A stretch of 64,000 bases of DNA from Candidatus Kaiserbacteria bacterium (lineage in GTDB: Bacteria; Patescibacteriota; Minisyncoccia; Phycocordibacterales; UBA918). A program made the translations under genes and the position numbers. The number at the start of each line of letters is the position of its first letter. Position 1 is the first letter of the stretch. This document shows, in pieces, positions 3,520 through 52,119 of this stretch. A model generated the notes under the pieces. It was given only the letters and a program-made list of their open reading frames with translations. It was not told where the DNA came from and searched no databases. Location of the stretch: the NCBI GenBank assembly GCA_016699245.1, contig CP064968.1, positions 219,386 through 283,385 of the forward strand, given 5' to 3'.

Positions 3520-4371
3520 ATGTATATTCTTTTTGACATCGGCGGCACCAAAACCCGAGTAGCATCAACAAACGACCTAGAGACAATTCTTCGCGTAGAA
3601 AAATTTAATACTCCACTCTCGTATGCCGAAGGTCTTGCGGCTATTGTGGCAGCCATAGAAACAGTGCGTGGAGGTGAGAGTGTGACCGCGATGGCGGGAG
3701 GTATTCGAGGACCTCTCAATCACGAAAAGACTGGAATTGTGAGCGAAAAAGTTTTGATGGACTGGGTTGGGCGCTCGATTACTGGCGACCTCAACCAAAA
3801 ATATCATGCACCCGTGTTTCTCGAAAACGATACCGCCATAGTTGGTCTTGGAGAGGTGCATTACGGTGCAGGGAAGGGAGCAGACATAGTGGCGTACCAC
3901 ACGGTGAGTACTGGGGTAGGGGGTGCACGATATGTGCATGGGCACATTGATGCAGTAAGTGTCGGATTTGAGCCTGGCCAACAGATTTTGGATATTGATA
4001 GAACTATACTTGGCAGTCATGTGTCTCCAACTCTGGAAAATATGGTGTCAGGCACTGCGCTCGAAAAACGAAAGGGAATGAAGCCATATGAAATATCTCA
4101 GGAAGATCATGTATGGGACGAGCTCGCGGGAATATTGGCATTTGGACTTAAAAACACCATTGTGTACTGGTCTCCAGACGTTATTGTACTCGGTGGTTCT
4201 ATGGTAATTGGTGACCCCCGTATTCTCCTCCCCGACATCATTCGTCATACTGAAGAGGCCCTGGGCGGGCTTCTTCTATGCCCTAAGATAGTCGATGCAA
4301 CCTTGAAAGATGAGGGTGGACTCTATGGTGCGATGGCACTCATCAAAGAAAAACAAGGCAACATAAAATAA
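3520..4371 (+). CDS. ROK-family sugar kinase (glucokinase-like)
   Basis: FDIGGTKTR N-terminus, LENDTAIVGLGE, ROK signature spacing. Confidence 0.7.
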   Translation: MYILFDIGGTKTRVASTNDLETILRVEKFNTPLSYAEGLAAIVAAIETVRGGESVTAMAGGIRGPLNHEKTGIVSEKVLMDWVGRSITGDLNQKYHAPVFLENDTAIVGLGEVHYGAGKGADIVAYHTVSTGVGGARYVHGHIDAVSVGFEPGQQILDIDRTILGSHVSPTLENMVSGTALEKRKGMKPYEISQEDHVWDELAGILAFGLKNTIVYWSPDVIVLGGSMVIGDPRILLPDIIRHTEEALGGLLLCPKIVDATLKDEGGLYGAMALIKEKQGNIK

Positions 4372-4402
4372 AGTTTGTCAATGTTCTTCACCTAGAAAAC
4401 GG

Positions 4403-4430
4403 CTATAAATATAGACTGTCAAATAGTTGA
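4403..4430. terminator. Perfect 12-bp-arm inverted repeat (ATAGACTGTCAA-ATA-TTGACAGTCTAT) after the ROK gene; terminator or operator
   Basis: Read directly; followed by an AT-rich tract. Confidence 0.4.
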
Positions 4431-4608
4431 CAGTCTATATTTATAGTTATGTAATTTGATTTTTTCATTCAAAATGGTATACTTTTTATGGACGGCTTGT
4501 GGCTGTCTTTTTGTTTGGTTCGCCTCGGCGGGACATACAAAATGTATTCGTTAAGACTAATGGCTTATATTATCTAGTTTACTTACAGCAATAATTGCTG
4601 TATCGAAC

Positions 4609-5004
4609 ATGGGAGTAGTATCGGTAGCCGATACTGCATATGGGCACATTGCAACAAAAGAAGATCAAGTCACTGAAGTCCGGCTGGTTGGTGCGAACAC
4701 AGAAACGGCAGTTCGTTCCTACTTCAGTGATATACCCGTCATGATACAAATAGCGCGGTGTGAATCACAATTCAGACAAACGCTCGCTGACGGTACTGTT
4801 CTTAGAGGAAAGGTGGATCCCGCTGACACTGGGGTAATGCAAATCAATATGCGTTATCACGGAGAAGAAGCGAGGGAACTTGGCCTGAATCTCGAGGACA
4901 TGTACGACAATATGGCGTATGCTCGTGATCTCTATGAACGGCAAGGTACGCGACCATGGACTGCATCTGCAGCCTGTTGGTCACATACTATTGCAATGCG
5001 TTAA
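4609..5004 (+). CDS. Small SLT-domain lytic transglycosylase-like protein (no signal peptide)
   Basis: IARCESQF...GVMQIN resembles the SLT catalytic ES...GLMQ motif. Isolated between two hairpins. Confidence 0.5.
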   Translation: MGVVSVADTAYGHIATKEDQVTEVRLVGANTETAVRSYFSDIPVMIQIARCESQFRQTLADGTVLRGKVDPADTGVMQINMRYHGEEARELGLNLEDMYDNMAYARDLYERQGTRPWTASAACWSHTIAMR

Positions 5005-5007
5005 CAG

Positions 5008-5036
5008 AAAATCTCCCCATTTGGGGAGATTTTCTT
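5008..5036. terminator. Intrinsic terminator hairpin (AAAATCTCCCCA-TT-TGGGGAGATTTT), bidirectional-looking
   Basis: GC-rich stem flanked by A-run and T-run. Confidence 0.6.
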
Positions 5037-5043
5037 ATGACCA

Positions 5044-5068
5044 ATGTTCGACGTACGACGTCGAACAT
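5044..5068. promoter_or_regulatory. Perfect 25-bp palindrome ATGTTCGACGT-ACG-ACGTCGAACAT upstream of the EVE-domain gene; candidate operator
   Basis: Read directly. A TATAAT -10-like box at 5109-5114 lies between it and the ATG at 5125. Confidence 0.45.
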
Positions 5069-5124
5069 GTGATGTTGTTCTAGGTCGTTTACCTACTTTG
5101 CCTTGGGGCGTATAATAAAAGGGT

Positions 5125-5601
5125 ATGCAGTACTGGCTCATGAAAAGTGAACCCTCGTGTTACTCTATTGACGATCTTAAACGCGATAGAATAGGTAGGT
5201 GGGATGATGTGCGCAACTACCAAGCGCGCAATTTTATGCGGAATATGGAGAAGGGTGATATGGTGCTTTTTTATCACTCGAGCACAAAGCCCGTGGGTGT
5301 GGTAGGGCTTGCGCGGGTGCACAGAGAAGCGTATCCCGACCCCACGCAGTTTGATGCACAATCATACAAATACGATGCAAAATCTTTGGAAGAAAATCCG
5401 CGCTGGTCTGCAGTCGATCTTTCATTTATTGAAAAGTTTTCTGAGGCTATGACACTTGCTGAACTCAAAAATGACCCATATTTCAAAAATATGCTCGTCG
5501 TGAGAACGGGTATGCGACTATCCGTACAACCAGTGGAAAAGAAACACTTTATGCGTATTTGTAACATGTACTCAACTGCTTTTGTGCCTATTGCCACATA
5601 A
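5125..5601 (+). CDS. EVE (PUA-like) domain protein
   Basis: N-terminus MQYWLMKSEP... typical of EVE/thymocyte-nuclear-protein-like domains; ~155 aa. Confidence 0.7.
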   Translation: MQYWLMKSEPSCYSIDDLKRDRIGRWDDVRNYQARNFMRNMEKGDMVLFYHSSTKPVGVVGLARVHREAYPDPTQFDAQSYKYDAKSLEENPRWSAVDLSFIEKFSEAMTLAELKNDPYFKNMLVVRTGMRLSVQPVEKKHFMRICNMYSTAFVPIAT

Positions 5602-5602
5602 T

Positions 5603-6370
5603 ATGAAAATTGGTTTCTTTGATTCGGGGATGGGTGGACTCACTATTCTACGTGCGGTGCGTGCATACATGCCGGAGTACGATTATATTTTTTTTGGTGA
5701 TACCGCCAATGTACCCTATGGGAGTAAATCTGAAGAGGAGATACATACGCTTACGTATGCAGGCATCAAACGTCTTTTTGATGCGGGGGCAGTGATTGTC
5801 ATTGTGGCATGCAATACCGCTTCAGCGCGCTCAGTGCGTATCCATCAAGATGAAATGCTTGCACGTGAGTATCCTGATAGAAAACTTCTTGGGGTGATTA
5901 TTCCTACAGTAGAGACACTTCTCGCGACACCGGCTAAGAATGTATTACTCATTGGCACCGAGCGTACTATTCGCTCCGAGAAGTATCTTATTGAACTCAA
6001 AAAAGGTGATGCAGACTTTACACTCTATACGCATGCCACACCGTCACTCGTGCCACTCATAGAATCGGGCGATTTGGAGGGTGCATGCACTGAAGTACGA
6101 CACGTTCTTTGTGAACCGAAATATGCAAACATCGATACTGTAGTACTCGGTTGTACGCACTACACACTTCTCAAAGAGTGTATTCGTTGTAATCGCACCT
6201 GCACTATCATTTCTCAAGATGAGATTATTCCTGAAAAATTTAAAGAGTACCTGACTCGGCATCCAGAGATTGAATCAAGACTCACGAGAGAGGGAAGTGT
6301 AGAGATAGACTTGAGTGTCGAAAATGAGCACTATGACACCATCAAGAAAACTCTCCTTAGAGCACACTAA
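5603..6370 (+). CDS. murI: Glutamate racemase
   Basis: MKIGFFDSGMGGLT, ACNTAS, GCTHY motifs; start chosen at MKIG to abut the EVE gene. Confidence 0.85.
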   Translation: MKIGFFDSGMGGLTILRAVRAYMPEYDYIFFGDTANVPYGSKSEEEIHTLTYAGIKRLFDAGAVIVIVACNTASARSVRIHQDEMLAREYPDRKLLGVIIPTVETLLATPAKNVLLIGTERTIRSEKYLIELKKGDADFTLYTHATPSLVPLIESGDLEGACTEVRHVLCEPKYANIDTVVLGCTHYTLLKECIRCNRTCTIISQDEIIPEKFKEYLTRHPEIESRLTREGSVEIDLSVENEHYDTIKKTLLRAH

Positions 6371-20891: not shown

Positions 20892-21656
20892 CTACTCAGT
20901 GCTTATTTTCATTCCGATGAGTACTCTCATCCGCCCATCATCCGGTAGATGTACCACCGGTACCGTCACAAAGAATTTGATTTTCGATGACACCTTCCAT
21001 GTCACAAGTGGTCCAGTTCCAAAATCTTTTTCAGCGTAGACACCAAACTGAAAATCACCAAACTTTTTTTCAATTGATGCCTTATAAATATAAGGCTCAC
21101 TTCTATCCTTCAAATAGCGTTCGAAGAGGATTGAAGCTTCGTACTCATCTGACCCATAATACATCCAGGGTGCAATGACTGTTTTTCGACTTCCATCGCT
21201 CCATGCACTACCAAAACCAAGTCCAAACTGCCAGTTGCCAAATTTCTTGGCAAGACCAGCGTATACTTCCTGGAATTCACGGTCGTAGTATCCAACTGCA
21301 AAAACCGAGAGATCTTCCCCCAAAGGGATGGGAGTTTCGATGTACAATGAACTAGATGTAGAGCTGTCACGCTTTGCCTTACCAATTCGATGTACAACGC
21401 TTAACTCAGCGTACACAGCACTTTTTTCCATCGTGTCTGGCATTACTTGACCATGGTCGCTTGCATACGCAACCCGTGTTGTATTCCAGTTTTCTGGAAG
21501 TAATTCTTCTTCAGCTTCAGAAATTTCTGTTGATGTAAGTGTTGGGGGGAGCGAAAGGTTGGTGTTCCAAGGTGATTCATATGCATGTGCACTACTTCCG
21601 AAAGCAGTGGCAAACGCAAGAAAAGCAAGCATGCAAAGTGCAAAAATCCTTTTCAT
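20892..21656 (-). CDS. Hypothetical secreted protein (signal peptide; KFGxxQFG repeats; beta-rich)
   Basis: N-terminal signal peptide ...AHA; no family recognised. Confidence 0.45.
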   Translation of the reverse strand: MKRIFALCMLAFLAFATAFGSSAHAYESPWNTNLSLPPTLTSTEISEAEEELLPENWNTTRVAYASDHGQVMPDTMEKSAVYAELSVVHRIGKAKRDSSTSSSLYIETPIPLGEDLSVFAVGYYDREFQEVYAGLAKKFGNWQFGLGFGSAWSDGSRKTVIAPWMYYGSDEYEASILFERYLKDRSEPYIYKASIEKKFGDFQFGVYAEKDFGTGPLVTWKVSSKIKFFVTVPVVHLPDDGRMRVLIGMKISTE

Positions 21657-21760: not shown

Positions 21761-23428
21761 TTATTTCCCTGCAATAAGCGGAAACTCAATGTGGAAGGTG
21801 CTCCCTTTCCCGTCACCTTCGCTTTCTGCCCACACCTTACCCTTCATCTCAGTAACCATTTTCTTTGCTACATAGAGGCCAAGGCCAGTGCCAGTTACAT
21901 TAACGCTATTTGCATTTTTTGCCCGTATAAATTTATCAAACACTTCTGCTTGTGTTTCTTTGTTCATACCGATGCCCGTATCTTGAACAGTAATTGTAAT
22001 TTTTTTCTTTTTGAGATCATCATGTACAAGTATCTTGATGGTACCTGAAGGTGTGTACTTCATGGAGTTGTCGAGAATATTTTGAATGACTTGACGAGTT
22101 TTCCCGACATCAGCATAAATCATCCCTGAACTACTACAGTCTGTGCGGAATATAAGTATAAGACCTTTTTTGAGTGCGACAGAACGCATCTCGTCCACAA
22201 TTTTCTCTGCAGTATCTTTGAAACTGAAATCACTCATCTCATACTTCATATTCCCCGCTTCGATGCGTGAGACATTGAGGTAGTCCTCCACTGAGCGCAC
22301 CATAAACATGCTTGAATCAGCAATATTCTGCACCGCTTCCTCTGCCTTTGCAGGAAGTTTGCCATAAGAACCCTCAGCAAGCATCGATGCATAGCCACGA
22401 ATAGAAGTGAGTGGGCTTCTGAGTTGATGCGATGCAATAGAGACAAACTCCGACTTCATCTTGTCAAGGATTTTGAGTCGGTCATTTGCCTTCCCGAGTT
22501 GCTCGGTAAGGACTTCAAGTTGCTCCCGCTGCTTCGCCTCTCTCTGTATGCTTTGAATAAGGAAGTATCCCGCAATAGTGATAAAAATGAGGGTGATGAT
22601 TGCAACAATCTGTGTGAATACTGATTCCGAAACAAAAATGAGTGACCCTATAAGGAACCAAAGTACAAATACAAGTGCTTTGGCTCCGAGAAGCCTAATT
22701 TCAAATGCTTGGAATTTGACAATCATGTATGTAAGAATGCACATGAAAAAACTCATTCCGAAAAGACCGTAAAACTCAAGCACAAAGAAATTATCTGTTA
22801 AAAGACTTGGAATATATCCAGTCAAAAAGAAAGAGAAAAGAAAAAATTCAATACCAATTCCAAAAATCAATATCTCACGCTTTAGCAAACCTGACGCTGC
22901 TTTGTATCTCAACACCAAAACAATCAGTGCCCAAATGGAAATAAAAAATCCATATATATAATAATAATTGGTGTAGAGTAAGCCTTCATCAGCTACACCA
23001 CATAATGGAATATTAAAAACTGTTAAGTGGGCATTAGTCGGTGCAAATAGGACTATCGGTATAAATAACAGTCCTAAAATCAAATTTACTGAAGTTGATG
23101 GACTACTTTTATCAATAAAAGCGTAGATAAAATAAAGAGACAAGACACAGATGAGCGCATATAGAATTCCAAAAAATGACCAGAAAAAAATAATTATGTC
23201 ACTAGCGTTGTTTGTCCATGTTATTAAATTTATAAACGTCCAGGTTGAAAAGCAGATTGAAAGCAACAAAAGTACACGAGAAGCATAAAGGTTACTATTC
23301 TTTAAATAGACAAATACTCCTAAAAAAAGTGAAATAGCAATGGCAGTTGAGTGAGAATAGTATAATAGACTAGGCACTCCTTCTGTTAAAATCAAAAAAG
23401 TTGGTTGAAGATAATCAGGACAAATCAT
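21761..23428 (-). CDS. Sensor histidine kinase with large polytopic N-terminal domain (orphan; no response regulator adjacent)
   Basis: HisKA H-box SIASHQLRSPL, HATPase G-boxes DTGIGM / GTGLGL; ~8-10 TM helices N-terminally. Confidence 0.8.
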   Translation of the reverse strand: MICPDYLQPTFLILTEGVPSLLYYSHSTAIAISLFLGVFVYLKNSNLYASRVLLLLSICFSTWTFINLITWTNNASDIIIFFWSFFGILYALICVLSLYFIYAFIDKSSPSTSVNLILGLLFIPIVLFAPTNAHLTVFNIPLCGVADEGLLYTNYYYIYGFFISIWALIVLVLRYKAASGLLKREILIFGIGIEFFLFSFFLTGYIPSLLTDNFFVLEFYGLFGMSFFMCILTYMIVKFQAFEIRLLGAKALVFVLWFLIGSLIFVSESVFTQIVAIITLIFITIAGYFLIQSIQREAKQREQLEVLTEQLGKANDRLKILDKMKSEFVSIASHQLRSPLTSIRGYASMLAEGSYGKLPAKAEEAVQNIADSSMFMVRSVEDYLNVSRIEAGNMKYEMSDFSFKDTAEKIVDEMRSVALKKGLILIFRTDCSSSGMIYADVGKTRQVIQNILDNSMKYTPSGTIKILVHDDLKKKKITITVQDTGIGMNKETQAEVFDKFIRAKNANSVNVTGTGLGLYVAKKMVTEMKGKVWAESEGDGKGSTFHIEFPLIAGK

Positions 23429-23472
23429 TTATTTTAAAATTAAGGTTCAATCATATTCTAACATAATAGTCT

Positions 23473-24027
23473 TCATATATTCCATTCAATATACTCATAT
23501 GGTTCTCCTGAAGCATGCACCCAAGAGCTTATAGGTCGAACAAGAGTGATTTTTTCTTTGAAAAGAGACTTGATTGTCTCGTGTAATCGATTGTTTGTAC
23601 GTGCGTGAATTGAAAACTGAGTAACTCCTCTTTTTTTTGCTTCATCACAAACAGCGACAATAAGTGTATTGCCACCGCCTTTACCCTGTTCGTCTGGAAC
23701 TATTTGGATTGTCTCAATATAATAACGGTCACCGATACTTCTAGTGAGAAGAGGATCGTCGTCAATGAGTTCTTCAAATGCTAAATGGTGTGGACGTGCA
23801 AGTATATAACCTATTACGTCATTTTCATTTTGTAAAAAAAGATTTATGCTTTGAGGATCACTGAGAGCATCTGCAAAATATTCTTCACCATCAACGTATT
23901 GCCACTCTGCGGGAAAGCATAATTTTTCAAGTCTCAAAATGTTTGCAAGTGAAGTTTCGTTATCCGGCACGGCTTCTATAGAGAGTGGTGGCTCAGTAAT
24001 ATTTTTATTAAAAATTTCTTCATTCAT
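23473..24027 (-). CDS. GNAT family N-acetyltransferase
   Basis: QIVPDEQGKGGGNTL acetyl-CoA-binding motif A. Confidence 0.55.
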   Translation of the reverse strand: MNEEIFNKNITEPPLSIEAVPDNETSLANILRLEKLCFPAEWQYVDGEEYFADALSDPQSINLFLQNENDVIGYILARPHHLAFEELIDDDPLLTRSIGDRYYIETIQIVPDEQGKGGGNTLIVAVCDEAKKRGVTQFSIHARTNNRLHETIKSLFKEKITLVRPISSWVHASGEPYEYIEWNI

Positions 24028-24073
24028 ATTTAAATAATATCATACGATACTATAAAAAAAGGGTAGCATGTTG

Positions 24074-24607
24074 CTACCCTCCAGAAATTACGTCATAGCC
24101 AGTTCTCCACAAAAACATCCAGATTACTGTTTGAATTGCTGTTAAGACTAGGAGTGCCACCCACCTTTTCCAACCAGGTAATTCTTTTTGAAAGAAAATG
24201 ACAATTTGTTCTGGCCCAGACCAAAATATTGCTTGAATACTTACTATTAAAATTGCAAAATATCCGGCAGTTTTTGATTCAGTATGAATCTTGTCGACAG
24301 CACGACGAAGATCAACTCCAAGGCTAAGATCAACACCTGTTTTTTCGTATGTCATCACAAACACAATACATATGGTCATATTGAGAAGTAGCATCGCCAT
24401 AAAAGCAAGCACAATATCTACTTCATATGCCTTAAGAAAAAGATTTGCAGCAGCAGTTATTCCTGCAAGCCAGTAGTCAAGAATAACGTACATAAACCTT
24501 TTAAACCCCACAAAGACGATTTTTCTACACACTTTCTTGTAGTCGTCTCCATTCTCTATACCAAAGAACGCCCTAATAGAATTCAGGGCAATTGAGAATG
24601 CACGCAT
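24074..24607 (-). CDS. Hypothetical integral membrane protein
   Basis: 4-5 hydrophobic helices; no motif. Confidence 0.4.
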   Translation of the reverse strand: MRAFSIALNSIRAFFGIENGDDYKKVCRKIVFVGFKRFMYVILDYWLAGITAAANLFLKAYEVDIVLAFMAMLLLNMTICIVFVMTYEKTGVDLSLGVDLRRAVDKIHTESKTAGYFAILIVSIQAIFWSGPEQIVIFFQKELPGWKRWVALLVLTAIQTVIWMFLWRTGYDVISGG

Positions 24608-25014
24608 TTCCTACCCCCTTCATTCAGAATTTTAACTATACATATTTAAACATATATAACATCATAAGTCAATTATTCATCCCTAAATTTGCGCATCGGC
24701 AAATTGCTGTAGCGGGTAAGTAGTTTGTTTGTAAAAGTAAGAAAATTCTAGTTTTCTATATATCCATTTAGTATTCACTTATAAACCCATACATGAATTT
24801 TCAAGCCCTGTTAAAAATCATGCCAACGACTATACCGAGAATAAGTATGAGTCCAGGAATGACAAAAAGACCCACTACCATCTCCTTTTTACCCGAACCA
24901 TACACTCGACAAGTTTCTCGATTGCTGGCATTAGTTTTGACATATAAAATTCACTATAACAGGAAAACAAGGGAATAAATCTGGATTTGTCAGATTACAG
25001 AAATGTGTTTGGAA

Positions 25015-25539
25015 TTAAATTTCTATGTTGACTTGATTATCAGCTGGTATTTCATCAGTAGTACTTTCTTCAATTATTATAGTTTTCTCTGAGGGTATTT
25101 CAGCATCAAACATTACATTTTCCTCAGACTCCTCAATTATAAGTTCATTAGCAAAATTTTCAGGTAAAGTACACGCTTGGTCTATGTTGTGCTCCTCGAG
25201 AGTTGCAGGCGTACAGAGTACTTCATTACATTCGGCCTCGCCGCCTTCTGGGCAGGTGAATTGATCACATGCTTCTTCTCCTGCATCACACGCAGGAATA
25301 TTTTTCGCATTGCGGTAGGCTATTTTGTAATACCAAATATCTTCATCGGGATTGCCGGTACACTCCTCCACATCCGAGTCACACTCCCATACGAAACAAC
25401 TTTCATACGTTGGGTCACAGTCAACTTCGTTTTGTATGATGTAGTCGTGGAGCACCATGAAGCGATAGTATGATGCAGAAACAGAGAGCATTATTAACGC
25501 ACAAAATATTCCATAGAAAACTTTTGTTTTTATTCTCAT
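25015..25539 (-). CDS. Hypothetical Cys-rich secreted protein with acidic C-terminal tail
   Basis: Signal peptide, ~12 Cys in CxxxC / CD..EC patterns, E/D/I-rich C-terminus. Confidence 0.4.
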   Translation of the reverse strand: MRIKTKVFYGIFCALIMLSVSASYYRFMVLHDYIIQNEVDCDPTYESCFVWECDSDVEECTGNPDEDIWYYKIAYRNAKNIPACDAGEEACDQFTCPEGGEAECNEVLCTPATLEEHNIDQACTLPENFANELIIEESEENVMFDAEIPSEKTIIIEESTTDEIPADNQVNIEI

Positions 25540-25660
25540 TATGAAAATTATATCACTTGTTACGAACTATTCGTTGTCTCTATTCACAATATTTAGTCAA
25601 GTGTAATAAATAGTGTTTTCATGAAGAAGCATTCAAACAATCTTTTAATAGAGTTAATTA

Positions 25661-26959
25661 TCAAAGCCAGCCCCATTGTTTGAGAAGTTTGTGATTTTTC
25701 TCAAGGAATGAGAGCCCAATATCTTTACGGTAAAACTTCTGTGGGAGTACTACTTTTTCAATGAGTGTGTATGCACTATGGCGTGCCTCCTCTACGGTAC
25801 TTCCCGTTCCACTTACATGCATTACAAATCCATTTTCACTTGAAATGCGCATTGTTCCTTCGGTATCCATATACACATCTTCCAAGTGGATGCGCGATTG
25901 TTCCTCAGGTGTGAGGGGTGCACTATACGTGATTGGTGTGTCTATACATGAACCATTTTCAAGCGGTGTGCTGTATGGGAAGGGTGGTACTGCAACAAGT
26001 ACGGTAACTCCATATCCTTCAGAATACTCAAAATCGCATTGTTTCCCACGCGCCACATCATACAGAAAATCAGTAAAAGATGATGTAACAAGTACACGCT
26101 GAAGTTGCAGTGCAGGAAAACCAAAACGAGCAGTCCATTCAAGCGGAAAGACACCATGCTCGTTAATGATGCAGTTGATGTCTACGTCACCATGAAACTT
26201 GGCCAGTGCAAGAAATGGCTTGAGACGAGCGAGTGTGTCATTGAAAAGTTTATTGGATTCATCACGGTCAAACCACATGAGCGTACCCATCTCCCACGTT
26301 GTTGGGCCAGTGTCACCATCTTCAAGGCGTTTGTGCTCAATATTGTATTCAATCGGCCCCACCCAGTCGGTGCCATTGAAATACCGCGCAATACCAATTT
26401 CAACACCATGTACGCGTTCTTGTAGAATGATAGTGTTGCCGTTCACATCAGCCTCATTTAAAAGTGCGTCGATTACGTCCTGGCCATCATGTGCATTTCC
26501 GATATGTGTCGCGGTCATTTCGACATGGCCATTATGTTTTAGTACCCACTCTTTGGGATGATCTTCAATAAAACGAATAGCATTATTTTTGTTATTGAAA
26601 TGATGTGTTGGAAGAATTGTGAGTCCTGCGTCCCGAAGTACCTGTTGACCGTACTCACGGTCTTCTTCGCATCGTTCGGCCTCCTTACTCCCCCCAATGA
26701 CGGTATAGCCGTTCAGGCGAAGCTCATCCTGCTCATTACCAAAACCTGTGGTATCAAACACAATAAGTCCGTCCTTCCCTACCCACGCAAGTTCATCCTG
26801 CCAATTATCGATGAGTGTGAATCTTCCCTCGGCACTTTTTTTGTATTCCGGGTCATCGAGATATACTTTTAGCGTATGCCCTTCACGCATAAAAAAATCG
26901 CACATATCTACGATTGAAAAATCTCCAGATACTGCGAGTATGTTCATCTCTTTACTCAA
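25661..26959 (-). CDS. ATP-grasp ligase, PurD (phosphoribosylamine-glycine ligase)-like fold
   Basis: N-terminal pre-ATP-grasp domain followed by ATP-grasp-like blocks similar in order to PurD (YTVIGGSKEAERCEEDREYGQQVLRDAGLTILP...); overlaps the speH stop by 8 bp. Identity with PurD proper is not established. Confidence 0.5.
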   Translation of the reverse strand: MSKEMNILAVSGDFSIVDMCDFFMREGHTLKVYLDDPEYKKSAEGRFTLIDNWQDELAWVGKDGLIVFDTTGFGNEQDELRLNGYTVIGGSKEAERCEEDREYGQQVLRDAGLTILPTHHFNNKNNAIRFIEDHPKEWVLKHNGHVEMTATHIGNAHDGQDVIDALLNEADVNGNTIILQERVHGVEIGIARYFNGTDWVGPIEYNIEHKRLEDGDTGPTTWEMGTLMWFDRDESNKLFNDTLARLKPFLALAKFHGDVDINCIINEHGVFPLEWTARFGFPALQLQRVLVTSSFTDFLYDVARGKQCDFEYSEGYGVTVLVAVPPFPYSTPLENGSCIDTPITYSAPLTPEEQSRIHLEDVYMDTEGTMRISSENGFVMHVSGTGSTVEEARHSAYTLIEKVVLPQKFYRKDIGLSFLEKNHKLLKQWGWL

Positions 26960-27248
26960 CTTCCTTCACCCCATATTTTTTCATGTCTTCTACAAAAATC
27001 GCATGTTTTGCAGAATTGCATGACGAAAGTTCACAGTAGGTGGTTTTTTGCTCTGGAAACGTGTGGATAGCAAAATGGCTTTCGGCAATGAGCCATAAAG
27101 CTGTGTAGCCATAGGGATAAAAATGGTGCTCACTGAATCCAATCATCATAAACTCAGCCTTTTCTAATGCTGACTTACCGAATTCAAACACCTTTTTAGG
27201 GTCTGTCTCGTCAATGTAAAAACGAAAATTCCAAATTGTGGCTTTCAT
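26952..27248 (-). CDS. speH: S-adenosylmethionine decarboxylase proenzyme, small pyruvoyl-dependent class
   Basis: LIAESHFAIHTFPE self-processing ES site motif; ~100 aa. Confidence 0.7.
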   Translation of the reverse strand: MKATIWNFRFYIDETDPKKVFEFGKSALEKAEFMMIGFSEHHFYPYGYTALWLIAESHFAIHTFPEQKTTYCELSSCNSAKHAIFVEDMKKYGVKEVE

Positions 27249-27336
27249 GTTTTTAGATTATAACACAATAGTTGTTAAAATCAAATCACTTGTGGACAAT
27301 CTTTCCTCATACATATAGCTTATTGTGTATGCGATG

Positions 27337-28179
27337 TTATGGTATCACCTGTGAAAGCATGTGTACTCGCTGAGACTCCGAATACCAATTGGCTTGAATC
27401 AAGTTTGCATTTTTATGACCCGACGTAAGTGGTGCATTTTTCCCTGCTATCACAAGCGAGAAAGGGCCGCCATAGTACGTTGCAGCTCCACAGAATGTGA
27501 CATTGAGTACATTATCATTTCCAAATACTCGTATTGTATCCCGGGATACTGCTTGTAGTTCATTTGCTTGAAGGAGTCTTGATCCTCCAAGTCGCATGAG
27601 AATACCGTTTGTCGTAAGAAGTGAGTATATCTTGTCGGTGAATGCTCCCTGGAACAACGGTACTGCGTTACCAGTATTATCTGTAGTATCCATGAGGATT
27701 ATATCGAATGTGTTTTGTTCGGATAATGTATCAATGTGAGATGCATCTTCGTGAAGAATGGTAAGTCGCGAATCATTGAGTGCAGCATGAGATGCTGATG
27801 GAAAATGTAGTTTTGAAATTTCTGTAACGTGTGGGTCGATATCAACTATCGTGACTTTTTCAACAGTATGATGCTTGAGTACTTCGCGTGCGACTCCACA
27901 GTCTCCCCCGCCTATTATGAGCACATTTTGAGGGTTTTCATGAGAAAAAAGTGCGGTATGAGCCATACTCTCGTGATAAAAATATTCATCAAATTCCGCA
28001 AATTGCACGACATTGTCGAGCACAAGCACTTTTCCGAATCGAGGCGTATTAAGGACCATTAGTTTTTGAAAGCCAGTATTGTACTCAGGAACGAGCACGT
28101 CGCTAACTTCAAAACCAAAAGTATGGTCGGAATATAATTCTTCAAAAAACCATTGTTTCCCTCTGAATTCAGTAAGCAT
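27337..28179 (-). CDS. speE: Spermidine synthase (polyamine aminopropyltransferase)
   Basis: VLIIGGGDCGVAREVLKH, VDIDPHV motifs. Confidence 0.85.
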   Translation of the reverse strand: MLTEFRGKQWFFEELYSDHTFGFEVSDVLVPEYNTGFQKLMVLNTPRFGKVLVLDNVVQFAEFDEYFYHESMAHTALFSHENPQNVLIIGGGDCGVAREVLKHHTVEKVTIVDIDPHVTEISKLHFPSASHAALNDSRLTILHEDASHIDTLSEQNTFDIILMDTTDNTGNAVPLFQGAFTDKIYSLLTTNGILMRLGGSRLLQANELQAVSRDTIRVFGNDNVLNVTFCGAATYYGGPFSLVIAGKNAPLTSGHKNANLIQANWYSESQRVHMLSQVIP

Positions 28180-28228
28180 AAAATAAGTGTACGTTGTTTA
28201 TTTTAAATTACAATGATCGAATCAAACG

Positions 28229-28333
28229 TTACACAAAAAACAGAGCAACAAGCGGGAGGATGAGCCACCAGAAGAAGTTTTCTGTGGGGGCAAAGAGAGA
28301 CTGAATAGGAGTGCCTGGGGTAATGATTTCGGT
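28229..28333. repeat. Direct repeat copy 1 (105 bp, ~97% identical to 28881-28985): a displaced duplicate of the 3' end of the membrane-protein gene
   Basis: Read directly: ACACAAAAAACAGAGCAACAAG[C/T]GGGAGGATGAGCCACCAGAAGAAGTTTTCTGTGGGGGC[A/G]AAGAGAGACTGAATAGGAGTGCCTGGGGTAATGATTTCGGT. Confidence 0.8.
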
Positions 28334-28410
28334 CATGGCATTCACAAGCCTATATTACATTTTGACATACAGCCCTTCTCTGGTATTATATACATACATT
28401 TGGCATTAGC

Positions 28411-28443: not shown

Positions 28444-28842
28444 TTATATACCCAGTACTTTCCCTAGCTGGTCTTGAACTTTTTTAAAATCGATTGAATC
28501 AAGAGTCCCGATCCTTTTATCAAGTCTTCTATAATCGATATATCGAACTTGCGCAACATTTGCAGTGTTTTTTAACCCATCACTATGAGTTACATCAACA
28601 TACCATGATCCAGAATTTGATTTTGTAGAAAGTGGTACTCCTATAAATGATGTCTGTGAAAGTTTTTTTATAACCAAAACAGGACGTCTAAAAAATAGAT
28701 TTTTACCACACTCTTCAGAACCAACATTTACTCCAAACGTACACCACCATATTTCTCTGTCCTTAAAGAGCGGAGGTTTGTGCGAGTAGGTGTCAACATT
28801 CTTCTTGATAGTATTCCATTCATTAAATTGCTTTTTGTACAT
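28444..28842 (-). CDS. MazF/PemK-like (CcdB/MazF fold) toxin-like protein, orphan (no antitoxin ORF seen)
   Basis: EIWWCTFGVNVGSEECGKNLFFRRPVLVIKK...IGVPLSTKS matches the PemK/MazF pattern (W.v.F.p..GsE...RP.lVis...vvP.Ts). Confidence 0.5.
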   Translation of the reverse strand: MYKKQFNEWNTIKKNVDTYSHKPPLFKDREIWWCTFGVNVGSEECGKNLFFRRPVLVIKKLSQTSFIGVPLSTKSNSGSWYVDVTHSDGLKNTANVAQVRYIDYRRLDKRIGTLDSIDFKKVQDQLGKVLGI

Positions 28843-28880
28843 ATGAAAATATTATTTGCTTGAGTGAATATTTTTAATCA

Positions 28881-29360
28881 TTACACAAAAAACAGAGCAA
28901 CAAGTGGGAGGATGAGCCACCAGAAGAAGTTTTCTGTGGGGGCGAAGAGAGACTGAATAGGAGTGCCTGGGGTAATGATTTCGGTTACGGGGAGCGCGTG
29001 AAAACTAAATATCATGACAAGTATGGTACCCATGGCCGCGAGGAGTAGTTTTTTACCAAAGCGATGAAAGGCAGGCTCATAATCGTCGCCCGGAATATGG
29101 CGACGAAAAAGAAGTGTACCTACGACTACAAATGCAAGAAAGATGAGAATTTTTGCTATAGCGGCGCCGTCCCCCTCCCCCTGTGCTACTTGCTCATAGT
29201 ATGGAAATTTTATGGAGATAAGAAGTGCGAGGTAGAGAGCAAGAATTACATTAATGAGTGCATAACGCCCTCTTGCCATGGCATAAAAAAGAAGTACACC
29301 AAAAACCGAAATCATAAATACAGATTCCTTGAGTAGTGTGATGATGTCTTCAGGATTCAC
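28881..29360 (-). CDS. Hypothetical integral membrane protein
   Basis: 4 TM helices; its last ~35 codons form direct repeat copy 2 (28881-28985). Confidence 0.45.
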   Translation of the reverse strand: MNPEDIITLLKESVFMISVFGVLLFYAMARGRYALINVILALYLALLISIKFPYYEQVAQGEGDGAAIAKILIFLAFVVVGTLLFRRHIPGDDYEPAFHRFGKKLLLAAMGTILVMIFSFHALPVTEIITPGTPIQSLFAPTENFFWWLILPLVALFFV

Positions 29361-38089: not shown

Positions 38090-39445
38090 CTATTCTCCGA
38101 TTATGGTCGTTATAGTGATATCTTTTGGAGATTTTGGAAATGAATTAGCCCAGAAAGGACGTATTTCTGATTGAGCTTTTGAGATAGAACTACTGTACTT
38201 ACTGAGTACTAAGTCAGCCTCAGACTTTTTCTTGCCGACGAGTTCTCCTTTGAGTACATCTTCGTCGAATTTCCAGACTATCTGTGTATTACCTTTTAAA
38301 GTTATATCGAGTGATTGATTGTTCTTGATATCAGTTGTTCCCGTAGTTGCATCAGTGTAGGAGAAGGTAAGTGTTTGTGGGTCAGAAAGTAAAACGGATT
38401 CGTTGTTATAGTCAGTGACAGACTTCTTTGCTAAATATGCGGCTAATTCTGGCTCCTTGAGAATGGGAACTTGTAAACGAGCCTGCTCCTTGATGGTGGC
38501 GAGTGAATCACCGTACTCTGTGGAAGGAAGCGTTTCGTAGACAAAAGTCACCGCGTCTTTGTAGACTACGAACCCAGCTGGCTTCTCTTCCTCAAGACGT
38601 TTGAGAAGTTTATCGCGGAGCTCTACATGAAGTGCCTGTTGTGCAGTATTGAGTTCTTGTTCGTCTAATATGTACTTTTCTCCCTCAAACCCACCGGTAA
38701 AGGCTACCGTTGACTCACCATAGACATTATCAAACTGGTCACTTCCTTTTAATCCTGGAACAGTGAACTTTGTAGGTTTAATGTTGAACTTCTCACCGGT
38801 GCTGTCAGCAAATACATCGGCAACAACACTACCTGGGACAACAACACCCTTTGCGTCTTTAATTGATGCAGGAACTTCAATGGATTCTTTGATGCGATAC
38901 ACAAAACCGTCGGGGCTTTCAAACCGTGTATTTTTGATGAGTCTTTGAAGGCTTGTGCTCTTGTTGTATACAAAAATCTTGCCTTCCGATCGGAGTGATA
39001 CTTGCTCTTTGCCACTTGCCTTTACCTGACGCTCTCCTGATTCCTCGAGGGAAAGTAACTCATACCCAAGCTCGCCTGTTTGCGGTGCAGTGTATATAAG
39101 GAAGCTCGATTGGACTGCCACGTCTCTAATTTTTGGGTGCACGGTAACATCGGCACCGCCAAGAAAAATGTTGACCACAAAAACAAGCGCAATAATGAAA
39201 ACGGACACAGCAGAGGTCACAATGACTCGGTGACGTTTTTCAGACTTGCCATCAATTATGTCGATAGTAGAGAGGTCTGAGTCGTCAAACTGAGTCTCGA
39301 TTGGTTCTGGTCGTTGGATGCGTGGTGCTATGTCTGTGCGAGGGCGACGCTCTGGTGCTTGTATTTGAACCTCACGCACTAAAGACGCTTTAGGTGCTTT
39401 TCCACCTGCAGGTTTGATATCTTGAAGATTCCATTTTTGAGCCAT
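38090..39445 (-). CDS. Hypothetical protein with one N-terminal TM helix and a large extracytoplasmic domain
   Basis: Hydrophobic segment ~residues 85-105; no family recognised; 18 bp downstream of the actin-like ATPase gene. Confidence 0.4.
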   Translation of the reverse strand: MAQKWNLQDIKPAGGKAPKASLVREVQIQAPERRPRTDIAPRIQRPEPIETQFDDSDLSTIDIIDGKSEKRHRVIVTSAVSVFIIALVFVVNIFLGGADVTVHPKIRDVAVQSSFLIYTAPQTGELGYELLSLEESGERQVKASGKEQVSLRSEGKIFVYNKSTSLQRLIKNTRFESPDGFVYRIKESIEVPASIKDAKGVVVPGSVVADVFADSTGEKFNIKPTKFTVPGLKGSDQFDNVYGESTVAFTGGFEGEKYILDEQELNTAQQALHVELRDKLLKRLEEEKPAGFVVYKDAVTFVYETLPSTEYGDSLATIKEQARLQVPILKEPELAAYLAKKSVTDYNNESVLLSDPQTLTFSYTDATTGTTDIKNNQSLDITLKGNTQIVWKFDEDVLKGELVGKKKSEADLVLSKYSSSISKAQSEIRPFWANSFPKSPKDITITTIIGE

Positions 39446-39463
39446 TGTAATAAGTATATACCT

Positions 39464-40657
39464 TTATTCGTAATGTAGTTCACTGCAACCGTGTAGTTTG
39501 TGGAAAAACCGTGCTCCGAGGGCCAAATACACATCATCTCCTGCCCCATGTGAGATTTCATCGATGATATTTTGGCTAATTGATAGAATACGCGGTTCGT
39601 TTTTGATAGTGTCTTTGAAGACATTCTCAATAATTGGTGCAAAAAATCGCTCGAAAGGTTTGTGAGCAGTAATGACAATATCAGCAGGAATAGAACGATG
39701 CTCGAGAAGTTGGCTGAGTGTTTCAGAAATTTGTTTTTTGTATGATTCTATATGAGGAGTAAATTCAGCTGCATTGAGGTGTGCTTCATTCCCCACAAGA
39801 CTCATGTGAGATTGAATATCAGCAGAGGGTTTTCCAGTGCTTTTCATTATTTCTCTAATAAAAGTATTGCTTCCCACAGGGACGGAGGAATTTTCGATGA
39901 GGAGACCATTCTCCACAATAGCAAATTCAGTTTCTTCTCCCGTAATGTCAACGATACATAATGTATTGAGTCTTGGAAAAATATCACGGAGAACACAATA
40001 CATAATGAGCATGTATGTGTGTGTTCGAAGTTCTGTCTCAGTGAATAATTTTTCTTGTACTTCATTCACCGCATCAAGAATTTCCTGGGGAACCAGTCCT
40101 GTGATATGTGAAAGACCTAAAATAGTACCTTTTAAATTTAACGGGTGAACCACCGGATAATCATTGACGGTTATATCGACAGTAGCGCGTTCGACTATAC
40201 TAAATCCATTACTGGTGACATGTTCTACCCCACGAATATGATTAAGAATTTCTGATTCAGCACTCTGAATGAGGTCATTAATGATTGAATTCGTAATTCT
40301 AAATGGTACATTGTCCTCGAAATGCACAGTGCGAGCTACCGTATAAGACCATGGCGAGGAGCACGTAACATACATTTTCGTTATGACAGCATTCGAATCA
40401 AACTCGTTGAGTACCTGCTTCCCTTCCTGAGAAAGAATGAGCGACGCAGAGAAAAGTGCCTCTCGAACGCGACGGATATTTTCTGACTTTTCAGAGCCGT
40501 GCTCAGTAATGCGCATGGTGTTACGGTGGGTATAGATAAGTTGCGGAAGTTTCGCGCCCTTTGGTGATGCAACAATAGCAATTCCCACGGTTCCAGAACT
40601 GATATCAACGAGCACACCATACACAGTATCGCTGCTGTTGTGGCGAAGATTAAACAT
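39464..40657 (-). CDS. ASKHA-superfamily actin-like ATPase (FtsA/PilM/Ppx-GppA-like)
   Basis: Phosphate-1-like VLVDISSGTVGIAIV and phosphate-2-like VDITGEETEF motifs. Confidence 0.5.
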   Translation of the reverse strand: MFNLRHNSSDTVYGVLVDISSGTVGIAIVASPKGAKLPQLIYTHRNTMRITEHGSEKSENIRRVREALFSASLILSQEGKQVLNEFDSNAVITKMYVTCSSPWSYTVARTVHFEDNVPFRITNSIINDLIQSAESEILNHIRGVEHVTSNGFSIVERATVDITVNDYPVVHPLNLKGTILGLSHITGLVPQEILDAVNEVQEKLFTETELRTHTYMLIMYCVLRDIFPRLNTLCIVDITGEETEFAIVENGLLIENSSVPVGSNTFIREIMKSTGKPSADIQSHMSLVGNEAHLNAAEFTPHIESYKKQISETLSQLLEHRSIPADIVITAHKPFERFFAPIIENVFKDTIKNEPRILSISQNIIDEISHGAGDDVYLALGARFFHKLHGCSELHYE

Positions 40658-50739: not shown

Positions 50740-52119
50740 TTAACCAATAGGCAAGTTTGAAGGTGGTTCTGCACGTTTTGAAGGAATACGAGCGAGTGTT
50801 GGTGTTGAAGCAACCTTTCCAGGAATATGAAACATAGTTGCAAGTTCTTCGGTGGTCATTACTTTCGTCTTGTCATTCTTATTATGATTTGTGTACGTAC
50901 GTCTTTTGTATTCATCAAGTTCCTGTTTCTTGAGTGCATCCTTCTTTCTTCCAGAAGGATCTTGCCACCAATTCCAGTCAAAGTCAGTACGCCACTTAAC
51001 ACCAATGGAATTGCGATTCAGGTCGTCGTATGAACGCCATGCGGTGATGAGCGTCCCGAGTCGTTCACCGGGGTTGAAGTTTTCATTTTTTGCAATATAC
51101 ATCCCGCGGATGGCGACATTGAATGCACTCTTACTGAGACTGCGCTCAATAGCTTTCAAGGTGTCTTTTTCTGTGTCAGTGAGAAGCATCATGACATTGC
51201 CTTTCTTCTCTTCATCCCCACGTTCTTTTACTGCTTTGTCGATGATGCTTTTCATTTCTGCACGCGCGGGACCTTTCCAATCCGGTGCAAGACCTAATGA
51301 ACCTTCTTTTAAAGTCATTTCTCTGTTTGCATCTATAAGTATCTGTACCCACATATGCTCGCCAGGGCCCATACTACCGAGTGCCTCAAGCATTGAAGTG
51401 ATAGGGTCAATTTTCTCTTCCTCTTTGGGCATATTTTGAAGACCATATTCCACGTATGTCTTTATAGGATATGCGTCAGCTTTTTTTGGACCGAAGTGAA
51501 CAGAAAAATATGAAAAACGTGATGGATCCCATGGAATTTCAGCAGTGTAATCAATATCGAGTTCGTGTACTTCGATGCCAGGATGCTGTGCATATAACTG
51601 AGTCTCAACAATATTTTTAAATTTCTTTTTAGGGGTACTGATGTAAAAACGTACGTCACCAGCACGAGATACGAGCTCTAGCCCATAGCGTGGCGGATGC
51701 TTGCCGTCCCAGTATGTTTGCACATGGTTGTCGGGAGCGGCAGATTGATACATTTGCATAAGCACAAGCTCCATTGCTTCAGGTGATTTAAAGATTTCTT
51801 GTGGTAATTTGATTTCAAGAGTTACCCGTCCCTGTGCAACATCAAATTTCTTCTGCACGAAGTACAGCCAATACTCAAACAAGAGTCCAAAGGTAATAAT
51901 TGGAAGCCAGATAGGAAATGAGACCACCATCATTTCGTACACGATATTTGAATTAATATCGAGTTTTTGAAACACAACTATTGCGACAAGAAGTCCTATG
52001 CCCACCAAAAGCCATGCAGCATTTGCACCAAATTTTTCTAGTGTGTTTACCGGACCTTCAATTAAGCCAATCATGTACATTATTGTACAGTAAATCCCCC
52101 ATGAAGACTGCGTCTTCAT
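50740..52119 (-). CDS. Hypothetical membrane protein (two N-terminal TM helices, large cytoplasmic domain)
   Basis: No family recognised; 3 bp from mltG start. Confidence 0.4.
   Translation of the reverse strand: MKTQSSWGIYCTIMYMIGLIEGPVNTLEKFGANAAWLLVGIGLLVAIVVFQKLDINSNIVYEMMVVSFPIWLPIITFGLLFEYWLYFVQKKFDVAQGRVTLEIKLPQEIFKSPEAMELVLMQMYQSAAPDNHVQTYWDGKHPPRYGLELVSRAGDVRFYISTPKKKFKNIVETQLYAQHPGIEVHELDIDYTAEIPWDPSRFSYFSVHFGPKKADAYPIKTYVEYGLQNMPKEEEKIDPITSMLEALGSMGPGEHMWVQILIDANREMTLKEGSLGLAPDWKGPARAEMKSIIDKAVKERGDEEKKGNVMMLLTDTEKDTLKAIERSLSKSAFNVAIRGMYIAKNENFNPGERLGTLITAWRSYDDLNRNSIGVKWRTDFDWNWWQDPSGRKKDALKKQELDEYKRRTYTNHNKNDKTKVMTTEELATMFHIPGKVASTPTLARIPSKRAEPPSNLPIG

Follow-up and report, generated by a model that had tools for sequence, protein, structure and literature searches.

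Which acid and which amine are joined by an ATP-grasp ligase that resembles an enzyme of purine biosynthesis and yet is encoded beside two genes for polyamine biosynthesis? The question is raised by a stretch of 64,000 nucleotides from a Candidatus Kaiserbacteria bacterium (GCA_016699245.1, contig CP064968.1, positions 219,386 to 283,385), referred to here in its whole length as the window, in which speE, a speH-like gene and the ligase gene form three consecutive minus-strand open reading frames (ORFs) at 28179..25661. The results of our analysis indicate with high confidence that the ligase is not phosphoribosylamine-glycine ligase (PurD) and that it is a ligase of new specificity. We further propose, tentatively and as somewhat short of an even chance, that it is an active carboxylate-amine ligase of the PurD lineage that has been retooled for a polyamine-type amine, with handling by membrane proteins and a histidine kinase.

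The three genes and the start of the ligase

27337..28179, minus strand: speE, 280 aa, polyamine aminopropyltransferase of the spermidine-synthase type
26952..27248, minus strand: speH-like gene, 98 aa, short pyruvoyl-type decarboxylase of the S-adenosylmethionine decarboxylase (AdoMetDC) family
25661..26947, minus strand: PurD-derived ATP-grasp ligase, 428 aa (432 aa in the longest ORF, from TTG 26959)

The original prediction, made from the letters alone, had correctly placed all three genes on the same strand. Its length of 432 aa for the ligase, and the overlap of 8 bp with speH, had come from the first TTG at 26959 and are replaced here. The start was placed at the ATG at 26947-26945, because the closest homologues are 428 aa long and M1 is invariant in an alignment of 25 sequences; this leaves a 4-nt spacer (AGAG) after the speH TAA at 26954-26952. 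The speH and ligase genes are tightly linked despite the lack of an overlap.

A PurD fold with replaced substrate residues

In Pfam, the ligase matches GARS_A (E value 2e-10) and, only at threshold, GARS_C, with no match to GARS_N. Its score against the purD equivalog model TIGR00877 is 108.8 bits, versus a cutoff of 288, and covers residues 78-417 only; phmmer likewise aligns PurD to it only from residue 74. The AF2 model based on the family alignment (pLDDT 88.7) contains the four-domain PurD fold. Foldseek ranks 1-15 for this model are all PurD (TM 0.71-0.77; E value 1e-22 to 9e-28; 17-22% identity), and the fold matches that come after PurD are biotin carboxylases, well behind, PurK and PurT. 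No domain of the RimK or tubulin-tyrosine-ligase (TTL) type was detected with Pfam or NCBIfam.

In human PurD numbering, the residues that contact glycine are Asp217, Arg292, Asp295 and Glu297, while Arg292, the GGREHA-loop residues Arg13 and Glu14 and perhaps Arg385 have been proposed to form the site for phosphoribosylamine (PRA) and the acyl phosphate; all glycinamide ribonucleotide (GAR) synthetases share the conserved B-loop GLAAGK (PMC2978367, PMC8880213). These contact positions were tabulated in 189 distinct members of the ligase family, aligned to PurD structures, with the following replacements.

GGREHA loop (PRA site): S-x-D-L-S-G-G-D-L, with no Arg or Glu at the aligned positions in the 189 members
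DHK: Asp217 becomes Glu204, giving EHK in 188/189
NxRFGDPE: T-x-R-F-G-[F/W/S/C/Y]-P-[A/S/I], so that Asp295 becomes F/W/S/C/Y and Glu297 becomes A/S/I
GGRVL: G-[F/Y]-[V/I/A]-L, so that Arg385 becomes F/Y
B-loop GLAAGK: K-Q-N-G-H-x-x-K-x-F-N-Y-V-G

A Glu at the position of human Glu297 was found in one member of the 189. The equivalent of Arg292, R274, is kept in 188, and K137, E183, K206, E270, R274 and D254, together with the C-terminal YRxDIG, are invariant or nearly so; in the Mg-binding ExN motif, the Asn is replaced with Thr in 186 members. Judged from this alignment, the phosphate-binding arginines and the carboxylates for the glycine ammonium group are lost, and aromatic, small or acidic residues stand in their place. 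The pattern suggests that the acceptor has become non-phosphorylated and probably cationic, and that free glycine is no longer the carboxylate; that the acceptor would be cationic and not a sugar phosphate is predicted because basic residues are replaced with aromatic or acidic ones. From the retained residues of the ATP site and the PurD-like model, the ligase is probably still catalytic.

PurD is the best match in both sequence and fold, and some databases name relatives of the ligase phosphoribosylamine-glycine ligase, which would suit a divergent bona fide PurD (GAR synthetase) serving purine synthesis or salvage. We regard this as extremely improbable, and it was rejected on score, motifs and gene context. 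In addition to the score far under the purD cutoff, all proposed contacts to the PRA phosphate and two of the four glycine contacts are replaced family-wide, and members of the family are found inside phage virion proteins. No purine-pathway gene is present among the 48 ORFs of the window scanned with Pfam, which encode DnaK/DnaJ, aminoacyl-tRNA synthetases, cell-wall proteins, RpoA and similar products, nor is there a pur gene in the loci of four relatives annotated with Pfam. The doubt raised in the original prediction that the protein is a true PurD is borne out by these results, as is, for the 48 ORFs, its statement that the window holds no other purine gene. Of the resemblance to PurD that it described, the part concerning the ATP-grasp block stands (GARS_A and the fold), while the part concerning the N-terminal block does not, as neither GARS_N nor GGREHA is found there.

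The ligase family in bacteria and phages

A profile search of 1.84 billion cluster representatives retrieved 755 clusters (50% identity) at E<=1e-30. Each of the best 150 of the 755 reaches 234 bits or more, in most cases across the full length, a minority being fragments or fusions; solved PurD structures reach at most 109 bits with the same family profile. The family is found mostly in bacteria of the Candidate Phyla Radiation (CPR), with some members in phages. The latter were identified by tblastn and by the search of cluster representatives; a scan of IMG/VR for close viral relatives returned none by the patterns used. One phage member (P0231; L172 2818-6528) is a single ORF of 1236 aa made up of a portal domain, the ATP-grasp region and a Mu-F domain; it has retained the family signature and is encoded beside terminase in a phage contig of 65 kb. 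Another is an unannotated, free-standing, full-length protein at the end of the structural module of the freshwater myovirus MW202796.1 (L163 8001-9302). A GNAT gene lies 4 kb upstream of this member.

About 10 of the best 150 representatives are split by inteins (candidates P0134, P0137, P0143, P0152, P0171, P0191, P0194, P0196, P0250 and P0251). They are 740-1120 aa long, match the profile in two or three stretches, and are broken near profile positions 225 and 276, beside the conserved EMGT and RFG motifs. In P0134 and P0143, the two on which Pfam was run, intein domains (Hint, intein-splicing, LAGLIDADG) lie between the ATP-grasp halves. Fusions of the ATP-grasp region to a GNAT (a 634-aa ORF in locus L034) and to a weak SET domain (P0155) were also found. 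No PHROG, NCBIfam or PADLOC model covers the family, and our literature search found no paper describing it. In databases its members are called hypothetical, 'GARS C domain-containing' or, wrongly, PurD ('phosphoribosylamine-glycine ligase'). Within the PurD lineage of ATP-grasp ligases, the family has in all likelihood a new specificity, and its genomic setting in CPR bacteria and some phages is conserved and distinctive.

Decarboxylase genes beside the ligase gene

The setting was examined in 80 loci from species-representative genomes, nearly all of them Patescibacteria and including the cultured Minisyncoccus archaeiphilus; ORFs were clustered, and neighbours were counted as families within 6 kb of the ligase. 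A gene of the AdoMetDC family lies within this distance in 17 of 79-80 loci, as compared with a chance expectation of about 1-2 in 80; the corresponding binomial figure (1e-11 at p = 0.025 per locus) ignores shared ancestry. The ligase-linked AdoMetDC genes belong to three lineages, which are about 30% identical to one another.

Type A decarboxylase: about 135 aa, with a KDPGGW insertion and FP(K/R) for WPE; 13 loci
Canonical class 1b form: fused to SpeE in L011; also in L026
Short form: 92-98 aa; in the window, L001, L025 and L166

The decarboxylase gene is directly upstream of the ligase gene, with gaps of -4 to 30 nt, in the window and in L001, L025, L039, L048, L070, L074, L079, L095, L098 and L166. 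An EamA gene stands between the two in L047 and L167, and the decarboxylase gene is convergent or downstream in L046, L059 and L077. Because three lineages are involved and the arrangements vary, these data argue for repeated recruitment of decarboxylases beside the ligase. Among close relatives of the window the gap is 2 nt in L001 and 6 nt in L166, and in L070, which carries another lineage, the genes overlap by 4 bp. The short form abuts the ligase gene in 4/4 loci, while SpeE is adjacent in two of them, lies 4.7 kb off in L166 and was not found in L025. The decarboxylase thus has a closer link with the ligase than with SpeE. In L011, a 355-aa fusion of class 1b AdoMetDC and SpeE (4074-5141) and a second SpeE-like gene (5179-5955) are both located immediately upstream of the ligase gene.

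SpeH and SpeE of the window

The product of the speH-like gene matches the Pfam family AdoMet_dc (PF02675; E value 9e-14; 52 bits versus a cutoff of 25) and falls below the cutoff of NCBIfam TIGR03330 (42.7 bits versus 75.65; profile positions 21-84 of 112). Its residues Ser57, His62 and Cys77 correspond to S63, H68 and C83 of the T. maritima enzyme, which serve self-processing and catalysis, and the HTFPE motif is kept; the Ser/His/Cys criteria have been described, as has the Pro by which true AdoMetDC is told apart from arginine decarboxylase derivatives (PMC10407285). The C-terminus is approximately 25 aa shorter than that of the solved class 1b enzymes 1TLU and 2III. The best model by far is the phage family phrog_27309 (96 positions), with 112 bits over the full length, and four distant relatives with 44-59% identity are all encoded in phage genomes (L168-L171; P0280, P0287, P0304 and P0326). 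There, the short AdoMetDC-like proteins (about 90-109 aa) occupy a fixed slot, flanked by a ParB_N/N6_N4 DNA-methyltransferase gene on one side and by the genes for the small and large terminase on the other, with portal and Mu-F genes also on the terminase side (4/4 contexts). One of these phage proteins occurs in 35-49 marine contigs. For the phage proteins, a role in depletion of S-adenosylmethionine or in polyamine synthesis is conceivable. On the strength of these matches, SpeH of the window is classed as a short, phage-type AdoMetDC-like protein.

In several cases AdoMetDC homologues of phages and CPR bacteria have become ornithine or arginine decarboxylases, and homologues without SpeE are known to have switched substrate (PMC9992855, PMC10407285). 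For SpeH of the window AdoMet is the predicted substrate because SpeE is encoded next door, which argues for AdoMet as the most economical choice. SpeE itself matches Spermine_synth (PF01564; E value 2e-38; 132 bits) and the tetramerisation domain Spermine_synt_N, and its scores are just under the NCBIfam equivalog cutoffs (PRK00811, 229.7 bits versus 260; speE, 205 versus 249.6). The best PDB match is the spermidine synthase of B. subtilis (1IY9; E value 1e-38). The SpeE sequences GGGDCG, VDID and DTTD align with the motifs of 1IY9 for the cofactor, decarboxylated S-adenosylmethionine (dcSAM), and for catalysis, and correspond to the GGGDGG, acidic D-x-D and D-S-T-D motifs expected of a polyamine aminopropyltransferase.

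The conserved neighbourhood

Downstream of the ligase gene, the window has the full standard layout of the family, i.e., a Cys-rich protein, M177, GNAT and a seven-transmembrane (7TM) histidine kinase, followed by aminoacyl-tRNA synthetases as in relatives.

25015..25539, minus strand: Cys-rich acidic protein with an N-terminal membrane anchor, 174 aa; conserved partner
24074..24607, minus strand: M177, small all-helical membrane protein, 177 aa; conserved partner, alternative to EamA
23473..24027, minus strand: GNAT N-acyltransferase, 184 aa; Pfam Acetyltransf_1, 1e-9
21761..23428, minus strand: 7TM sensor histidine kinase, 555 aa; Pfam HisKA, HATPase_c and a weak HisKA_7TM
27257..27284, minus strand: promoter-like site in the 88-nt speE-speH spacer, TTGATT-16-TATAAT with upstream TG, 10/12 matches
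24058..24082, minus strand: terminator-like hairpin (11-bp stem, then a T-run) where the M177 gene ends

The predicted promoter-like site in the spacer could allow speH and the ligase gene to be transcribed independently of speE; in the region scan such sites are no more frequent than in shuffled sequence, and it is a weak hint. No terminator-like site was found by the sequence scan between the ATP-grasp gene and the gene of the Cys-rich protein. The terminator scan, like the promoter scan, is not above shuffled expectation and gives weak hints only. The Cys-rich protein has one N-terminal hydrophobic segment, 11 Cys residues and an isoelectric point (pI) of 4.05, and matches nothing in Pfam or NCBIfam. 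The best PDB matches of the GNAT are weak (NAA50, diamine acetyltransferase 2 and RimI), and no subtype was assigned. A riboswitch that might point to the ligand was not found with Rfam, which gave no match in the window and matched tRNAs alone in 11 related loci.

A defence-system reading was tried and rejected: PADLOC has no match for the ligase, SpeH, GNAT, the Cys-rich protein or M177, its matches being limited to the generic methyltransferase fold of SpeE and the ATPase domain of the kinase.

Across the 80 loci, the neighbours were counted as follows.

7TM histidine kinase, the most frequent neighbour: 52 (clustering) to 60 (tblastn)
Cys-rich, N-terminally anchored acidic protein: 41-46
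EamA/DMT transporter: 42
M177 small helical membrane protein: 28
M178b, a related membrane protein: 20
Response regulator: 20
AdoMetDC-family gene: 17
GNAT: 12
SET-domain protein: 12
Guanidinoacetate-N-methyltransferase-like protein, PF27704: 6
speE: 3

EamA, M177 or M178b is present in 75 of 79 loci. Loci with EamA hardly ever carry M177 as well (Fisher p 2e-11), so that each appears to take the place of the other as membrane partner. Residues at presumed pocket positions of the ligase follow this division. Where the partners are EamA and a type-A decarboxylase, position 277 is a small residue, together with Tyr374/Tyr377; where they are M177, GNAT and the short decarboxylase, as in the window, 277 is aromatic and is accompanied by Phe374/His377. 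The speE link is thus rare, the decarboxylase link is recurrent, and the link to the kinase and membrane proteins is the rule. The unit of a speE-speH polyamine operon plus ligase, as drawn in the original prediction, has to be redrawn accordingly, since speE is rare and loosely attached and the constant partners at 25539..21761 had been overlooked. The survey of speH and ATP-grasp neighbours suggested there supports the decarboxylase half of the link and not the speE half. The coupling of speH to the ligase is conserved in the closest relatives (L001, L025 and L166) and recurs with the two other AdoMetDC lineages.

The variable neighbours also include PrmA/PRMT5-like genes and, in loci anchored on the decarboxylase, a deoxyhypusine-synthase-like gene. 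By their family assignments, these neighbours (speE, GNAT, SET, PF27704, PrmA/PRMT5-like and deoxyhypusine-synthase-like) are all predicted nitrogen-modifying enzymes. The PF27704 gene is found right after the ligase gene or beside a type-A decarboxylase (L081 11387-12094; also L002, L006, L098, L116 and L132), and it hints at guanidino substrates, e.g., agmatine or guanidinoacetate. In the closer of the metagenome loci anchored on a type-A decarboxylase (L083, L089, L091 and L103), the same module of kinase, Cys-rich protein and EamA is accompanied by other nitrogen-modifying enzymes in the place of the ligase, i.e., an LPG_synthase_C-like protein, an Acetyltransf_3 GNAT, PrmA-like and SET methyltransferases, and a deoxyhypusine-synthase-like enzyme. 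The picture is that of a conserved sensor and membrane module beside a variable cassette which makes or decorates amines, with the ligase as one frequent member. The ligase is tied to this cassette because it is itself fused to GNAT in L034 and to the weak SET domain in P0155.

Some side features of the window lie around these genes. A 115-nt direct repeat (28224-28338 and 28876-28990; 95% identical, 652 nt apart) duplicates the 3' end of a membrane-protein gene (29360..28881) and flanks an ORF for a PemK/MazF-like toxin (28444-28842); an ORF for an antitoxin was not recognised. The arrangement suggests that a toxin cassette has been inserted immediately upstream of speE. Three copies of the repeat fragment are present in L001, the closest related locus, and L166 carries PemK/MazE and ParE cassettes between the ligase gene and speE. 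Directly after the kinase, at 20892-21656 (minus strand), is a 254-aa ORF with no Pfam match, where relatives have a response regulator of 270-290 aa. The G+C content is 37.1% at 22001-26000 and 42-47% in the rest of the window, and the low-GC stretch spans the kinase, GNAT, M177 and Cys-rich genes and the 3' end of the ligase gene. Further away, Pfam gives no match at E<=1e-5 for three large minus-strand ORFs (38090-39445, 39464-40657 and 50740-52119; 451, 397 and 459 aa).

A proposed pathway and its alternatives

In the pathway that we infer, including its two substrates, the order of its steps and the roles of the membrane and kinase genes, the ligase would phosphorylate a carboxylate other than free glycine to an acyl phosphate, according to the ATP-grasp paradigm. 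The acyl group would then be passed to a cationic, non-phosphorylated amine, most likely of the polyamine type. This amine might be supplied by the SpeH-like decarboxylase, as dcSAM or a decarboxylated basic amino acid, and in the window also by SpeE, as an aminopropylated amine (e.g., spermidine). The product would be an N-acyl or aminoacyl polyamine, which would probably be acetylated by GNAT, or methylated by N-methyltransferases in relatives. Finally, the conjugate might be handled or moved by M177, or elsewhere by EamA, under the control of the 7TM histidine kinase. Acylation of a polyamine-like amine, the core idea of the original prediction, is suggested by the gene neighbourhood, by the substitutions in the active site, and by the precedent of the HsvC and HsvB ligases discussed below. 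A more specific form of this pathway, in which the ligase and the phage-type short decarboxylase would be a dedicated unit that makes conjugates of a class not known before, N-acyl or aminoacyl aminopropyl amines (perhaps directly on dcSAM), we consider distinctly unlikely; in this form the ligase family would serve CPR episymbionts, under the 7TM sensor kinase and with an exporter, and also phages, as a virion-borne portal-ATP-grasp-MuF protein, to rewire or sequester the polyamines of a partner cell.

Several observations weigh against the pathway with a polyamine. Approximately 75-80% of the family loci have neither a decarboxylase nor speE within 6 kb, and when, in a reverse survey, metagenome loci were selected by their type-A decarboxylase, only 2 of 80 encoded the ligase. 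The constant partners (kinase, Cys-rich and membrane proteins) carry no polyamine-specific signal, and the neighbourhood counts are inflated by the kinship of the CPR genomes. The change from Asn to Thr in the ExN motif is unusual for an ATP-grasp enzyme and could alter catalysis. SET, PrmA/PRMT-like and RimI-like GNAT families are classically protein-modifying, so that a protein target would fit them equally, as it would the phage member in the portal-MuF virion protein.

The first of these points bear on a reading in which the ligase makes or traps a small molecule other than a polyamine, such as a dipeptide-like or N-acyl amino-acid signal, an osmolyte or an envelope precursor, together with EamA or M177 and the kinase, with speE and speH being incidental and possibly phage-derived. 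The commonest neighbours are indeed the kinase, the Cys-rich protein and EamA/M177/M178b, with the decarboxylase in only 17 loci; SpeH of the window is of a phage-type family, and the toxin cassette just upstream indicates that the region accepts foreign genes. We find this reading rather unlikely, though a serious contender, in view of the three AdoMetDC lineages placed directly upstream of the ligase gene with gaps of 2-30 nt or overlaps, the short decarboxylase that abuts it in every one of its four loci, and the remaining variable neighbours, which are also amine- or guanidine-modifying.

The classical targets of the neighbouring families are an argument for a ligase of the RimK or TTL type that modifies proteins or peptides by adding an amino acid or amine to a protein carboxylate. 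SET, PrmA/PRMT5-like, RMT2/GAMT-like and RimI-like GNAT enzymes are best known to act on protein Lys, Arg and N-termini, the portal-MuF protein is a usual slot for effector domains acting on macromolecules, and an acidic co-encoded protein exists in the Cys-rich product. Such a role is unlikely. The nearest structural relatives (PurD, biotin carboxylases, PurK and PurT) are all small-molecule ligases, no RimK- or TTL-type domain is detected, and the Cys-rich protein is membrane-anchored and probably extracellular, where there is no ATP.

The Asn to Thr change would also suit a protein that binds ATP but is impaired in catalysis, and that serves the adjacent histidine kinase as a regulator or sensor. 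The ligase gene often adjoins that of the kinase and sometimes overlaps it (L062, -19 nt; L070, 7 nt). This is very improbable, however, given that K137, K206, E270 and R274, the residues for phosphoryl transfer and stabilisation of the acyl phosphate, are invariant in 188-189 of the 189 members, that the known fusions are to enzymes (GNAT and SET) and not to signalling domains, and that the phage members have no kinase partner. We retain acylation of a polyamine-type amine as the working proposal.

Implications

The genomes of CPR bacteria (Patescibacteria) are very small, and de novo purine synthesis is generally considered to be absent from these organisms; because of this, 'PurD' annotations in them mislead metabolic reconstructions. 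The ligase belongs to a large conserved family with an active-site signature of its own, for which there is no curated model or assigned function. The recurrent operon, with its kinase, surface-anchored Cys-rich protein, transporters and nitrogen-modifying enzymes, points to a regulated pathway for a modified amine in cell-attached organisms. If the product is a polyamine conjugate, polyamine metabolism in bacteria would gain a new branch, and the conjugate would be a candidate for a molecule that acts between symbiont and host or between phage and host. Phevamine was solved by heterologous expression combined with metabolomics, an approach that is directly applicable to this hypothesis.

Comparison with known systems

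Of the known enzymes, PurD (EC 6.3.4.13; TIGR00877; PDB: 1GSO, 2IP4, 2YW2 and 2QK4) shares with the ligase the four-domain ATP-grasp fold, the Lys and Glu residues of the ATP site, the equivalent of human Arg292, and YRxDIG, and presumably the same acyl-phosphate chemistry. The ligase differs in its shortened, unrecognisable N-domain without GGREHA, in ExT for ExN, and in the absence of a purine context. ATP-dependent formation of an amide on a polyamine nitrogen is otherwise carried out by the glutathionylspermidine and trypanothione synthetases and by the gamma-glutamylpolyamine synthetases (PuuA, GlnA3 and PauA). These have the ATP-grasp of the glutathionylspermidine-synthetase type or the glutamine-synthetase fold, which are other families and gave no matches in the Pfam, NCBIfam and PDB searches with the ligase. 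A homologue of gss clusters with homospermidine synthase in phages and beta-proteobacteria (PMC9992855).

On the side of the decarboxylase, the self-processing Ser/His/Cys triad of class 1b AdoMetDC/SpeD and of SpeDC and SpeDA, its neofunctionalised derivatives that decarboxylate ornithine and arginine, is also found in SpeH of the window and in the ligase-linked type-A proteins. SpeH of the window differs from class 1b AdoMetDC in being a 98-aa short form that matches phrog_27309, while the type-A proteins differ by the KDPGGW insertion and by FP(K/R) where AdoMetDC has WPE.

The closest parallel in arrangement is the hsv operon of Pseudomonas syringae, in which HsvC and HsvB add valine and phenylalanine to amidinospermidine, yielding phevamine A (PMC6187163). 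That operon encodes an amidinotransferase instead of a decarboxylase or aminopropyltransferase and has no kinase or membrane module. The likeness of the Hsv ligases to the present ligase is in operon logic only, namely ATP-grasp amide formation on a modified spermidine, encoded in a three-gene operon together with an enzyme that modifies a polyamine nitrogen (PMC6187163).

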